The notes beneath the pieces are model-generated. The model saw only the letters and a program-made list of their open reading frames with translations, ran no database searches and was not told the origin of the DNA. Source: Candidatus Thalassarchaeaceae archaeon (GTDB lineage Archaea > Thermoplasmatota > Poseidoniia > Poseidoniales > Thalassarchaeaceae). From it: a stretch of 34,790 nucleotides of DNA. The translations under genes were made by a program, and so were the position numbers. This document shows positions 1,984 through 5,873 of the stretch, in pieces. Numbering within the stretch: the first letter of the stretch is position 1; each line of letters starts with the position of its first letter. The stretch is from the NCBI GenBank assembly GCA_030747675.1, contig JASLKH010000080.1:1-34790 (forward strand), given 5' to 3'.

Positions 1984-3147
1984 ATGGAGGAGAACTCGTC
2001 CGGGGACATTATGGAGAACGCTCCTTTGCGTAACCTCCGGCAGGTGGCTTGGTTTGAGAGAACCATGGACGCGAGTATTGGTGCATTGCATCTTACGGAC
2101 GACCGTTTGTTTGCTGGCGATTGGGCTGGCACCATTCTTTGCTGGAACTTAGAAGGTGAGGAATTGTGGCGTGTGCAGACCAATGATCGTGTATCTGGAT
2201 TTGATTCTGGAGGAACAAATCTCTATGCTGTTTGTGGACGAGACATTGTTTGCATTGACTTCGACCTAGGGGAAATTCAATGGAGTGTGGAATTAGAAGG
2301 TAGTTCAGACCTAGTTGCTTGTACATCAGACGGTAGTACTGTGCTAACCACCTCATCAGTATTTGATATTGAAGTAAATGATTTCATGGAATCAACATGC
2401 TGGAGATTTGATTCAACAGGTACTCTCCTAAGGAGAGACACACTTGGCGAAAGACCATGGTTCATAGAAATACGTGATGATGGTTGCGGTCATCTTGCAT
2501 TGGGCCGCCCAAGGTGCGGAATGGTACGAGTCGACATGGAGGGTTTACATTGGTACCCTCTGCCCAGTCAATCACCCACAACTTGTGGTTTGACTGATCC
2601 AGACCACATAGTGATTGGGCACGTAGATGGAACGTTGACATGTATTGATTCAGGTTTTGTTCTTGAAGAAGGCCAATTCCCAAAACAACCCGGTTCGATT
2701 AGAAGTTTGGACAGCACACCCAATGGTTTGGTGATATCGGTATCAATGGATCCAGGCAATAAAATTGAAAGCCTTGCCCGAGCATATGATTGGGATGGAC
2801 ACCTTCGTTGGCAAATGGAAACAAATAGCGGCCGTAAATTTGAACATGTAATTGATGGCCCCGACTTGAATGAAAACCCCTCAGTGTGGCTGATGTCGTG
2901 GAATGGAAAATTATCTGAAATCGCAGTAAGGGCTGAAATCGATGGTAATCCCGAAGTACGATTTGAATCTAATTCTAGAGTAAATACTTGCATTTCCAAT
3001 GCAGAATATATTGCAATTGGATTCCACGATGGGAATTTAACCATTGTTCAAGGTGAACTTTTGAATCGTCGCCTATCTGCAGATGAAGATGAGGAAAAAT
3101 CACATAGGTCAGATCTGGCAGCAAAGTTGAGAGCTCTGCGTGGTTAA
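1984..3147 (+). CDS. PQQ/WD40-like beta-propeller repeat protein
   Basis: Repeated ...G...W blade endings (GEELW, GEIQW, GHLRW) and short beta-strand periodicity; 387 aa. Confidence 0.7.
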   Translation: MEENSSGDIMENAPLRNLRQVAWFERTMDASIGALHLTDDRLFAGDWAGTILCWNLEGEELWRVQTNDRVSGFDSGGTNLYAVCGRDIVCIDFDLGEIQWSVELEGSSDLVACTSDGSTVLTTSSVFDIEVNDFMESTCWRFDSTGTLLRRDTLGERPWFIEIRDDGCGHLALGRPRCGMVRVDMEGLHWYPLPSQSPTTCGLTDPDHIVIGHVDGTLTCIDSGFVLEEGQFPKQPGSIRSLDSTPNGLVISVSMDPGNKIESLARAYDWDGHLRWQMETNSGRKFEHVIDGPDLNENPSVWLMSWNGKLSEIAVRAEIDGNPEVRFESNSRVNTCISNAEYIAIGFHDGNLTIVQGELLNRRLSADEDEEKSHRSDLAAKLRALRG

Positions 3148-3238
3148 TTTTCTAACATTTTCTTGGAAGGCCCAATTTTTCTCCAGTGGAATAAAGGGTC
3201 ACTGTACCTTATTTCGAATGGAAAACACGTAATTTCAT

Positions 3239-3251
3239 ACAAAGGTTTATC
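3239..3251 (+). promoter_or_regulatory. Putative BRE + TATA-like promoter for the large ncRNA
   Basis: ACAAAGG-TTTATC, a purine-rich BRE-like run followed by TTTAT at 3246-3250. It lies ~26 nt upstream of G3277, where the structured region begins, which is the typical archaeal TATA-TSS spacing. Confidence 0.55.
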
Positions 3252-3935
3252 GGCCACCGTATCCCAAGTGACTTTTGCCGCTCCCGAGGAGTGGTGTCGG
3301 GACGCCAGCGTCACCGGCAGGCCCCAGCCCACAAGGGACCCAAATCGGGAATCGGCAGTGGGCCATTGTACACAATCTTTGGATTGTGAATGGTGGGGTG
3401 TGCGCGCGTTCGCAAGTTCGCTAACGCAGACCCGCAGGAGACGAACACTTACTTCGGTAAGTGGATCGATCTGTGAACGTGTGGGAGAGCTGGTCTCAAA
3501 CACATATCGCACTTCGGTGCAACACAGGCTTGACTTTAGTTCGCAAGAACGGGAACCGGACAGAAGGAATATTGAAAGCAATAGGGAAATGAAGATGATG
3601 AAGGGAATCACTGGAAGCCGCAAGGTGACCTCAGGGACCTGAATGAAACGAAATTGAACTTTTATGATCAAGAATGCCGGCTGAATCGAATGAACCTTGA
3701 CAAACTCCTGTGTCAGAAATCATAGGCAGCAATGCTTGTGATATGCTGATGGGACGGTGAATACTGCAGTTGAAACCGGCCCGGAATGGGATGAAGCTGC
3801 AAAGTGAAATCCTATTCGAAGGGGATAGGGGGTAACAGCAATGTTACTTTCTACTTCAGGAGGAATTCTCGTCAGAGTAAGACCGAATGAAGAGTTGTGC
3901 ACTCGTGAGAGAGTACAATGCCCAGGGCGCCGGCA

Positions 3936-3961
3936 AGGAGCAATCCGAAGGAGCAATCCGA
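3936..3961 (+). repeat. Tandem 13-nt duplication AGGAGCAATCCGA x2, each forming a GGA-GCAA-UCC hairpin
   Basis: Exact repeat at 3936-3948 and 3949-3961. Confidence 0.9.
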
Positions 3962-4132
3962 GTCGGTACCATGGAAGAGAAAAACATCTTCGGATGTTGG
4001 ACGACGCCAAGGGAATCAGGACAGGAAACTGTACTGGGCGTCCAGAGGGAAGGCCGATGCTCCGGCATCGTGCCAACCCAACCGGGATTCTGAAAACATC
4101 TCCGGATGTCGGAAGGGTTACGGATGCGGAGA

Positions 4133-4197
4133 CTGGCTGGCGGGAAAAGATCTACTCGATTGAACCCCGCCAGCCAGCACTCCCAACTTCCTCTTTT
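4133..4197 (+). terminator. 3' terminal hairpin plus pyrimidine/U-rich tract, probable 3' end of the ncRNA
   Basis: CTGGCTGGCGGG (4133-4144) pairs with CCCGCCAGCCAG (4166-4177), followed by TTCCTCTTTT (4188-4197). Confidence 0.5.
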
Positions 4198-4274
4198 GAG
4201 GATAAAGGGCCTTCCTTCCAAATCACCTTTTCATGATTGCTACTCTTTTACAATTGTACGTTTGTTTTCTTTAC

Positions 4275-5873
4275 TTATGCTCGGGGGCCAATCATTTCTT
4301 CAGGACGCACCCATGCATCAAACTGATCGTTAGTCAATAAGTTCAATTCTAGAGCAGATTGTCTTAATGTGATGCCTTTCTCATGTGCATTTTTTGCAAT
4401 TTTCGCTGACTTGTCATAACCAATGTGATTGTTTAATGCAGTGACAAGCATCAATGAATTTTCTAGATGAGATTGAATTGCATCTGAATTAGCCTCAAGC
4501 CCCATGACACATTTGTCAGCGAATGCTCGACAAGTATCAGCCAAAATCCGTGTGCTGTGTAGTAGATTATGAATCATCATTGGTTTATACACGTTGAGTT
4601 CAAAATTTCCTTGGCTGCCACCAATTGTAATGGCAGTATGATTCCCCATAACTTGGCAGCAAACCATAGTCATCGCTTCTGCTTGTGTCGGGTTTACCTT
4701 ACCAGGCATGATACTTGATCCCGGTTCGTTGGCAGGCAGTGATAGTTCACCCAATCCGCAACGTGGGCCTGATCCCAACCAACGAATATCATTTGCAATT
4801 TTCATAAGGCTCGCAGCGAGGGTGTTGAGTGTTCCACTGGCTGCAACAACTGCATCATGTGCTGCAAGTTGTGCAAATTTATTCTCGGCTGTGATAAAAG
4901 GCAACCCAGTTTTTTCAGCGATATGGTCGGCAACGATTTCAGCAAAAGCTGGGTGAGTATTCAATCCAGTCCCTACTGCCGTGCCACCCAATGCTAATTC
5001 ATAGAGATCCTCAAGTGCAAAATCAATGCGCCTTAGGTCTGCGTCCAACATGGCAACATATCCACTGAATTCTTGACTTAATGTGAGTGGAACAGCATCC
5101 ATTAAATGGGTACGACCAATTTTCACAATTCCTTCAAACTGTTCAACTTTTTCTGCAAGTGTATTTCTTAGATGCAAAACCTGAGGCCTCAATGTGTGGT
5201 ACATTTCTTCTGCACCAGCAATATGCATTGCAGTTGGAAACGTGTCATTGGATGATTGCGCTTTATTCACATGATCGTTTGGATGCACTGGATTTTTCGA
5301 ACCCAATATGCCGCCTGCGAGCTCAATGGCTCTGTTAGCGATGACTTCATTCGCATTCATATTCGATTGAGTACCAGATCCGGTTTGCCAAATTCGTAAT
5401 GGAAAATGCCCATCCAATTCACCATTGACGACTTCTTCCGCGGCAGTGATAATCAAATCAGCAACTTTTTGATCCAGGGTCCCTAACTGTTTGTTGGTTT
5501 TCGCGGCGGCTTGTTTGAGTATTCCAAAACCTCGAACCACACCCCTCGGCATCGTATCTTCTCCAATATCGAAGTTGATTATGGAGCGTGCAGTTTGGCA
5601 ACCATAGTATCTGTCAGCAGGAACTTCAAGAGACCCCATGGTGTCCTCTTCAATACGAACATCTCCTTTTGGCGACGACGCTTTTCTTTGTTCTGTAACA
5701 ACAACGGGAGAGTTTTGCTGCCCCCCGTCCAATGATTCCTGAATCATTCTCGTAATGGTGGCACTTCGACCATCGCGTCGGCCCTTGCCAACACGGCGAT
5801 CCAGGCGCTCTGCTAATTTCTCCGGTATGCTAATGCTCATGATACGACGGTCTCCCGCCCTGTGCTTTGCCAT
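4275..5873 (-). CDS. fumC: Class II fumarate hydratase with an N-terminal ribbon-helix-helix extension
   Basis: Fumarate lyase signature [15 protein letters not shown], plus [19 protein letters not shown] and [10 protein letters not shown]. About 70 extra N-terminal residues precede the usual RIEEDTMG start of the core. Confidence 0.96.

Follow-up and report, generated by a model that had tools for sequence, protein, structure and literature searches.

Our analyses have identified a large structured RNA gene in a member of the archaeal family Thalassarchaeaceae (Marine Group IIb, MGIIb), which belongs to the order Poseidoniales (Marine Group II, MGII). The DNA analysed, referred to here as the window, is a stretch of 34,790 nucleotides (nt) of contig JASLKH010000080.1, and all coordinates without another designation are positions in it. 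The RNA gene, ~945 nt in length, lies on the + strand at 3272–4215, within a 1.1-kb intergenic gap between the gene for a cytoplasmic beta-propeller protein of 387 amino acids (aa) (1984–3147, + strand) and the convergent class II fumarase gene fumC (4275–5873, − strand). An initial annotation of this DNA had proposed a large, independently transcribed non-coding RNA (ncRNA) in the gap, and this proposal is now supported, at the level of sequence, by a conserved promoter, very strong covariation among homologs, + strand polarity, the absence of a coding signal and the absence of any match in Rfam. In view of these observations, we regard it as very highly probable that 3272–4215 is a real structured ncRNA gene of a Poseidoniales family, and the RNA behaves as an independently transcribed one. 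Judged by the models and sequences with which it was compared, the RNA matches no catalogued family. When this reading is taken together with the mechanism that we favour, viz. that the RNA is an architectural scaffold which forms a ribonucleoprotein (RNP) with host proteins, the probability that we assign to the whole is roughly 0.45.

Fold and covariation of the RNA

The window sequence alone sets this region apart from its surroundings. In a mechanical scan of 3272–4215 for stems of at least 4 base pairs closed by GNRA or UNCG loops, the + strand has 10 such stems and the − strand none, whereas 500 dinucleotide-shuffled sequences average 1.3 ± 1.1 (maximum 6) and 134 other 944-nt tiles of the window average 1.1 (maximum 4). 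The earlier statement that extra-stable loops are found on the + strand only is thus borne out, and the seven hairpins that had been offered as examples are all present (3446–3463, 3509–3520, 3719–3742, 3832–3847, 3983–3998, 4021–4032 and 4055–4070). The predicted folding energy of the + strand is −364 kcal/mol (z −8.6) versus −311 kcal/mol (z −5.2) for the − strand, and both the G+C and the purine content of the region are above those of its flanks.

Stronger evidence is provided by comparison with homologs, all of the sampled genome assemblies being metagenome-assembled genomes (MAGs) or single-cell assemblies. A DNA search of relatives recovered full-length homologs with 66–78% identity in 22 of the 23 genomes of the genus, and 17 full-length copies from the same genus were aligned and their common structure predicted by RNAalifold. 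The 386 predicted pairs have canonical partners in 95% of alignment cells, versus 34–42% after the partners are slid by 1–3 columns. Compensatory double changes, which had been named at the outset as a check on the RNA, are present in 147 of these pairs, versus 32–50 in the slid controls and 84 ± 4.5 (maximum 97) in 200 shuffles. Cells with G-U pairs exceed those with A-C by 666 to 84 in this alignment, and on this basis the + strand is identified as the RNA strand. The structure contains ~31 hairpin loops, of which ~17–20 are GNRA loops (mostly GCAA) and ~5 are of the UUCG type, giving a GNRA density of ~1 per 50 nt. For the 5′ domain the comparison extends across genera: double changes occur in 33 of 40 pairs, and 93.7% of cells are paired versus 41–51% after sliding, in an alignment of 31 sequences that was fitted to the covariance model R1 described below and hence leans somewhat towards that model. 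None of 500 shuffles of this alignment reached the observed values.

According to the comparative structure, the RNA begins with two hairpins, P1 and P2, followed by a helix, P3, that joins its two ends; a 3′ hairpin stands beside P3, and the sequence between forms ~25–30 hairpins, most of them capped by GNRA (mainly GCAA) or UUCG loops. P1 (GCCGCUCC-CGA-GGAGUGGU, 3277–3295) is the most conserved element of the family. Its 8 pairs are formed in 99% of cases in the 31 sequences, 3 of them with double changes, its two G-U pairs are kept in 28 of the 31, and its sequence occurs once in the window's genome (G000). P2 follows directly (3296–3318) and shows compensatory changes across genera in 9 of its 10 pairs. 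The closing helix P3 is formed by 3320–3325 and 4206–4211 in the RNAalifold structure of the 17 sequences. It is constant inside the genus, but between genera the whole helix changes while complementarity is kept, its versions being GGCCCC/GGGGCC, GGGCCAC paired with GUGGCUC or UUGUGGUCC, CUGCC/GGCAG, and GGACUCCG/CGGAGUCC.

The remainder of the conserved 5′ domain (3327–3433), covered by model R1 and alignments A1 and A2, consists of branched hairpins. It is followed by a central region that varies between genera (3434–3849), whose hairpins are capped by GNRA and UUCG loops and which contains a block invariant within the genus (3609–3641), and by a 3′ module of ~335 nt (3850–4185) that is single here and tandemly duplicated in 12 of the 17 congeners. 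The module ends in a universal 3′ hairpin (4126–4185), in which GCGGAG (4126–4131) and CUCCCA (4180–4185) clamp a long stem; neither motif varies among 28 sequences of two families. The apical mini-hairpin carries a C-rich loop, UACUC (4153–4157), and no alignment column was found to covary with the U/C change in this loop as the partner in a pseudoknot would. Among the enclosing helices first proposed from the window alone, 3327–3332/3358–3363 agrees with the comparative structure, while 3471–3475/3523–3527, 3765–3769/3797–3801 and 4075–4079/4115–4119 are replaced by other pairings.

Three further ideas were considered and set aside. That the CCCACC tail pairs with the junction of P1 and P2 was rejected on inspection, since genera g1, g2 and g6 have CCCAAC and no compensating change. 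An exchange of strands between P1 and the clamp of the 3′ hairpin, both of which contain GCUCC/GGAGU, is unsupported, the P1 variants of genus g5 being unmatched in the clamp. Mimicry of the 3′ end of 16S rRNA (helix 45 and the anti-Shine-Dalgarno sequence) was dropped, as g1, compared through the 16S rRNA 3′ end of a congener, does not show the resemblance that some genera have.

Promoter, distribution and viral relatives

Upstream of the RNA is a near-invariant archaeal promoter resembling the B recognition element (BRE) and TATA box (AAAGGTTTAT, 3241–3250, + strand). The TATA-like element reported earlier is therefore real and conserved across genera: the AAAGGTTTAT element and its ~25-nt spacing to the conserved 5′ end are kept in all genera of both families in which the RNA was found (see below) and in two viral genes. 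As this distance to the first conserved RNA nucleotides is the same in every genus examined, transcription probably starts near 3272, where conservation also sets in, and not at 3277 as first proposed. About 15 nt upstream of the BRE/TATA element is an inverted repeat of the TTTC-N-GAAA type (3212–3225), kept in the 17-genome alignment and, in an ATTTCC...-type form, also in other genera, which could possibly be a regulator site or the terminator of the upstream gene.

The 3′ end had initially been placed at a U-tract at 4194–4197. These nucleotides form the loop of a small terminal hairpin (4189–4202) in the comparative structure and read UCUU in most congeners, so that a U-tract is not conserved, and sequence conservation runs past 4197 at least to 4211, the end of the strand that pairs with 3320–3325. 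The RNA would thus end at or shortly past the closing helix and at most at a T-run (4228–4231, + strand), which is kept as CTTTT in most congeners and is the likeliest candidate for an archaeal terminator.

The distribution of the RNA was examined with two covariance models, viz. R1 for the 5′ domain (built from alignment A1) and R2, an independent model of the 3′ hairpin (built from alignment A4), which holds only 7 pairs since the stem lengths vary and is mostly a sequence model. Positions 3272–3398 match R1 at 124 bits; this model was built in part from the window sequence, and more than 120 other genomes also match it. Downstream on the same contig, 4112–4191 match R2 at 42 bits (E 8.7e-7). 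Within the window's family, R1 matches 126 of 151 genomes in 12 of the 13 genera, nearly always once per genome, the 13th genus being matched with default filters, and R2 matches 69 of 74 genomes and all 13 genera. In the sister family (MGIIa), only genera g17 and g20 are matched by both models, R2 being present in 9 of 10 and 2 of 2 genomes, respectively. No R2 match was found in the sister-family genera g15 (0/24), g16 (0/20), g18 (0/10) and g19 (0/5), in the third family of the order (0/2), or in ~125 genomes representing over 40 further families of the phylum, and the class-level results with R1 agree. In addition, 103 matches to sequence patterns fall in entries assigned to Candidatus Poseidoniales, Thalassarchaeaceae, Thalassarchaeum or Marine Group II. 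One genome of genus g12 (G100, 3% contamination) has two R1 matches (C34:72761-73342 and C42:2937-3051), representing either a second copy or a mixed bin.

The genomic position of the RNA is likewise conserved. The propeller gene, ~100–125 nt of intervening sequence, the RNA and the convergent fumC are found in this order in every genus of both families, and the window RNA combines this position with a GAAAGGTTTAT-type promoter. Genera that gave no match have the propeller gene directly next to its neighbour or separated from it by only ~350 nt, which indicates that the RNA is truly missing from the site. The RNA appears to be specific for the Poseidoniales, where it is a single-copy, vertically inherited gene fixed between the propeller gene and fumC, and the simplest history that would account for its distribution is one origin before the split of the two families, with the RNA later lost from some of the sister family.

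Genes that share only the beginning of this RNA were identified in two viruses. A loose pattern for P1 gave 7 matches in IMG/VR, 6 of which are chance matches in coding DNA; no match was found in the GenBank phage collection, and a match in G283 was spurious. The remaining match lies in a 72-kb viral genome with direct terminal repeats and a family B DNA polymerase, rated as 100% complete. Its RNA-like gene (L186:1530-2010, equivalent to G280:C1:64150-64620; also L242) has the promoter GGAAGGTTTAT and, after a spacing of 25 nt, a P1 identical to the cellular P1 and a P2-like hairpin, and it matches R1 at 25.3 bits (E 1.2e-4); its predicted fold is only weakly better than those of shuffled sequences (z −2.0). 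The same arrangement of promoter and P1-P2 is present in a second complete virus of 69 kb, whose polymerase is 84% identical to that of the first (L243:1470-2150, equivalent to G281:C1:46510-47190; R1 17.4 bits, E 0.009). Here P1 differs by one compensatory change from C-G to A-U and keeps one of its two otherwise conserved G-U pairs. Model R2 of the 3′ domain finds nothing in either virus, and the interiors of the two genes differ. A further 13 contigs from related viruses, mostly incomplete, gave no match. The viral genes are regarded as RNA genes that would have copied the promoter and the 5′ handle (P1-P2), not as full homologs, and the retention of these elements alone by two viruses suggests that the 5′ handle serves by itself as a recognition element. 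The first virus also has a second GAAAGGTTTAA promoter ~900 nt downstream (L186:2470-2560), in a stretch poor in open reading frames (ORFs) that matches the second virus's RNA gene in position, and this site may hold two viral ncRNA genes in tandem.

Comparison with known RNA classes

Searches of the window with cmscan against all 4,227 families of Rfam 15, a comparison that had been suggested when the RNA was first noted, identified no family at its gathering score. At E-values up to 10, only two junk matches to snoRNAs on the minus strand were found in 3100–4300; at E-values up to 1, none were found in 14 divergent homolog loci; and ARAGORN detected neither a tRNA nor a tmRNA gene in the window. 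The novelty of the RNA therefore holds for Rfam. The initial annotation had also set it apart from RNase P RNA and signal recognition particle (SRP) RNA, and this view is upheld. The archaeal RNase P RNA model (RF00373) has no match at the RNA locus, and full-length copies lie on other contigs of the window's genome (C94:1046-1337, 237.6 bits, and C46:3107-3403, 220.6 bits; L031 and L032). The SRP RNA model (RF01857) likewise has no match at the locus; of 18 congeners that also carry the large RNA, 14 have a normal 308-nt SRP RNA on another contig, while none was found in the window's genome, which is 78% complete. The RNA resembles these two RNAs in being single-copy and structured and in having GNRA loops, but it matches neither model.

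OLE RNA (RF01071), from the Bacillota, is ~600 nt long and thought to act within an RNP, and the gene oapA adjoins ole. The window RNA has in common with it a large and intricate fold, restriction to one lineage, a single chromosomal copy, blocks of invariant nucleotides and a promoter of its own. It differs in being archaeal, in lacking sequence or model similarity, in varying 2.7-fold in size by internal duplication, and in having no strictly co-occurring adjacent gene comparable to oapA. Identity with OLE RNA was rejected, there being no match to RF01071 and the RNA being hosted by Poseidoniales, with the beta-propeller gene and fumC as neighbours. The ROOL and GOLLD RNAs, which form RNA-only cages (PMC12286853), are also large RNAs with dense tertiary-type motifs and have some viral link, as does the archaeal RNA. 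Neither of their models matches the window or the 14 homologs, and identity with either was rejected; moreover, the cellular archaeal gene is chromosomal and syntenic, not prophage-borne, and what the viral genes have in common with it is limited to the promoter and the first ~50 nt.

No description of the RNA was found in Rfam or in the searchable literature, the only candidate being Tan1 (Thalassoarchaea ncRNA 1). According to its published description (Hou et al., 2016, PMC5069720), Tan1 is an abundant 229-nt ncRNA of MGIIb that ranked fifth in RNA-seq abundance among MGII contigs, has a structure that is both complex and conserved, and is not represented in Rfam. The window RNA could be, or could contain, Tan1, an identification that would bear on its novelty and not on its mechanism and that is compatible with all of the functional explanations considered below. 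The agreement with that description in lineage (MGIIb), in structure and in absence from Rfam is in its favour. The conserved 5′ domain of the family spans ~120–230 nt, and mapping of reads to a divergent reference contig could yield a transcript of 229 nt; set against this is the mismatch between the 229 nt given in that description and the at least 480 nt of the present RNA. On balance, we consider it possible, though rather improbable, that Tan1 is the 5′ part of this RNA. If the identity is true, the RNA is partly known and has already been shown to be highly expressed.

Large and highly structured ncRNAs whose job is unknown are rare. OLE, GOLLD, ROOL, raiA and HEARO are, to our knowledge, all RNAs of bacteria or phages, and each of them opened new biology. 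Marine Group IIb is among the most abundant groups of archaea in the surface ocean, and its members are uncultured. The present RNA represents a class of comparable complexity in the Archaea, for which no described archaeal counterpart was found. Its support from covariation is unusually strong. The size variants (~480–1,290 nt) define a minimal core, so that the RNA is a ready target for cryo-electron microscopy (cryo-EM) and biochemistry, and comparative handles on function are provided by the viral genes with the 5′ handle and by the MGIIa genera, most of which have lost the RNA. The RNA also deserves annotation in MGII genomes, in which the gap is now empty or mis-called as ORFs.

Size variation and proposed function

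The size of the RNA varies greatly within and between genera. The distance from P1 to the tail ranges from 475 to 971 nt in 65 genomes, the commonest values being ~567, 604 and 653 nt, and the overall length from ~480 to 1,290 nt. The longest forms, of ~1,290 nt, have a second ~335-nt module and occur in 12 of the 17 genomes of the genus, in which query positions 701–961 match again ~85 nt downstream of the first match. The window's genome and three others of the genus have one-module RNAs. Two of these forms (G005 and G015; L004 and L005) have different deletion junctions inside the repeat, and close relatives (L006 and L009) have two modules; the differing junctions suggest independent deletions or recurrent recombination between tandem modules, or else chimeric assembly. 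Other genera carry 0–6 copies of a small GCAA hairpin rich in purines, GGACGNAAGGAA. In one RNA of genus g12 (L062, genome G090), the region from ~190 to 720 of the RNA holds up to 6 copies of a hairpin unit, AACYGGACGNAAGGAAGGGG, with a GCAA loop over a purine-purine internal loop, which is also seen in L069, L068 and L060; the purine content reaches 71% in this RNA.

The core of the RNA is invariant while hairpins in its interior have been duplicated and deleted without loss of the gene, and it is for this reason that we tentatively favour, by analogy with OLE RNA, an architectural scaffold forming an RNP with host proteins; taken by itself this mechanism falls somewhat short of even odds. 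Function or recognition would be centred on the invariant terminal core, comprising P1, P2, P3, the 3′ hairpin and the C-rich tail, to which at least one host protein would most likely bind, as is the case for OLE RNA. The interior would serve as a scaffold whose size can change through tandem duplication, expanding or contracting, and contacts between tetraloops and helices would account for its packing.

Several considerations weigh against this interpretation. The transcript and its ends are predictions from DNA sequence. The one-module forms come from MAGs and could in part be artefacts of assembly. The syntenic beta-propeller gene persists in lineages without the RNA, so that its product is not an obligate partner and could at most be a facultative one. 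Lastly, RNase P RNA, group I and group II introns and rRNA also have variable peripheries, and the size variation is thus compatible with a catalytic core.

A broader proposal is that this is the first class of ornate large RNA in the Archaea with an autonomous function, either as a new ribozyme or as a self-assembling particle, and that viruses of MGII copy its 5′ handle (promoter plus P1-P2) so as to bring their own RNAs into the same host pathway; we consider this unlikely. As to its two forms, an RNA-only multimeric particle or cage resembling those of ROOL and GOLLD, in which the GNRA loops and closed ends would serve for intermolecular contacts, is suggested by the GNRA density and the closed architecture of the 5′ and 3′ ends, and the partial viral counterpart echoes the association of GOLLD and ROOL with phages. 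It also speaks for such an assembly that ROOL, GOLLD and OLE were recognised as multimers only after cryo-EM (PMC12286853). However, the RNA has no sequence or model similarity to these three, the number of modules varies within the genus, which would disturb a precise cage geometry, and the gene is chromosomal, single-copy and syntenic, not phage-borne, which makes this form quite unlikely.

A new large ribozyme is, in our estimation, more doubtful still. Here the terminal core, with the G-U pairs of P1, GCGGAG/CUCCCA and the C-rich loop, would be catalytic and the rest would provide peripheral stabilisation. The size and complexity of the RNA are typical of ribozymes, and there are unpaired or clamp nucleotides invariant across two families, in addition to the P1 G-U pairs retained in 28 of the 31 sequences; however, the RNA shows no similarity to known classes, no substrate is obvious and the invariant core is small. 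An equally low probability is given to a protein-sequestering sponge of the CsrB or 6S type, in which repeated hairpins would titrate an abundant RNA-binding protein. Variation in the number of repeat hairpins between species is a feature shared with CsrB and RsmZ, and the labile repeat number (0–6 GGACGNAAGGAA hairpins, 1–2 copies of the 335-nt module) and the high purine content fit this idea. Against it, the repeat unit differs among genera, and several of them, g1 included, are without the small GGACGNAAGGAA motif. Moreover, sponges of the CsrB and RsmZ type are small RNAs that have simple GGA loops and lack an elaborate conserved core, whereas conservation in the archaeal RNA is strongest in its non-repeated termini, and an extensive tertiary-type architecture is unnecessary for a sponge.

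The two remaining explanations deny that the region is an RNA gene of this kind. Chance ORFs of 118–175 aa overlap the region, and the propeller gene ends ~125 nt before the RNA and shares its strand; the region could thus be read as protein-coding sequence or as a cis-regulatory untranslated region of the propeller gene or fumC. The initial annotation had found no credible protein in the gap, and the 17 homologs concur in having no codon periodicity, no significant Pfam matches and indels that break the frame (342 of 403 are not multiples of 3). The conserved promoter, in turn, sits between the propeller gene and the RNA, and both genes abut in lineages without the RNA, leaving this explanation very improbable. 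A large, multi-domain and GNRA-rich RNA might also be likened to a group II intron that has degenerated and has no ORF, or to another RNA of a mobile element, but the chance of this is negligible, as there is no model match even at E-values up to 10 in the window or up to 1 in the 14 homologs, the conserved 5′ sequence is UUUGCCGC and not GUGYG, domain V, a maturase and any ORF are absent, and the RNA has its own promoter and one copy at one syntenic intergenic site across two families.

Two minor observations concern the window's genome and the genes beside the RNA. The presence of two RNase P RNA genes in the assembly, for which 2.45% contamination is reported, suggests a strain mixture or contamination. 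Of the two flanking genes, the propeller gene adjoins the RNA in every genus and fumC is syntenic across genera. In the 532-aa fumarase the Lyase_1 domain begins at residue 80, giving the protein an N-terminal extension of ~79 aa (5637–5873, minus strand).

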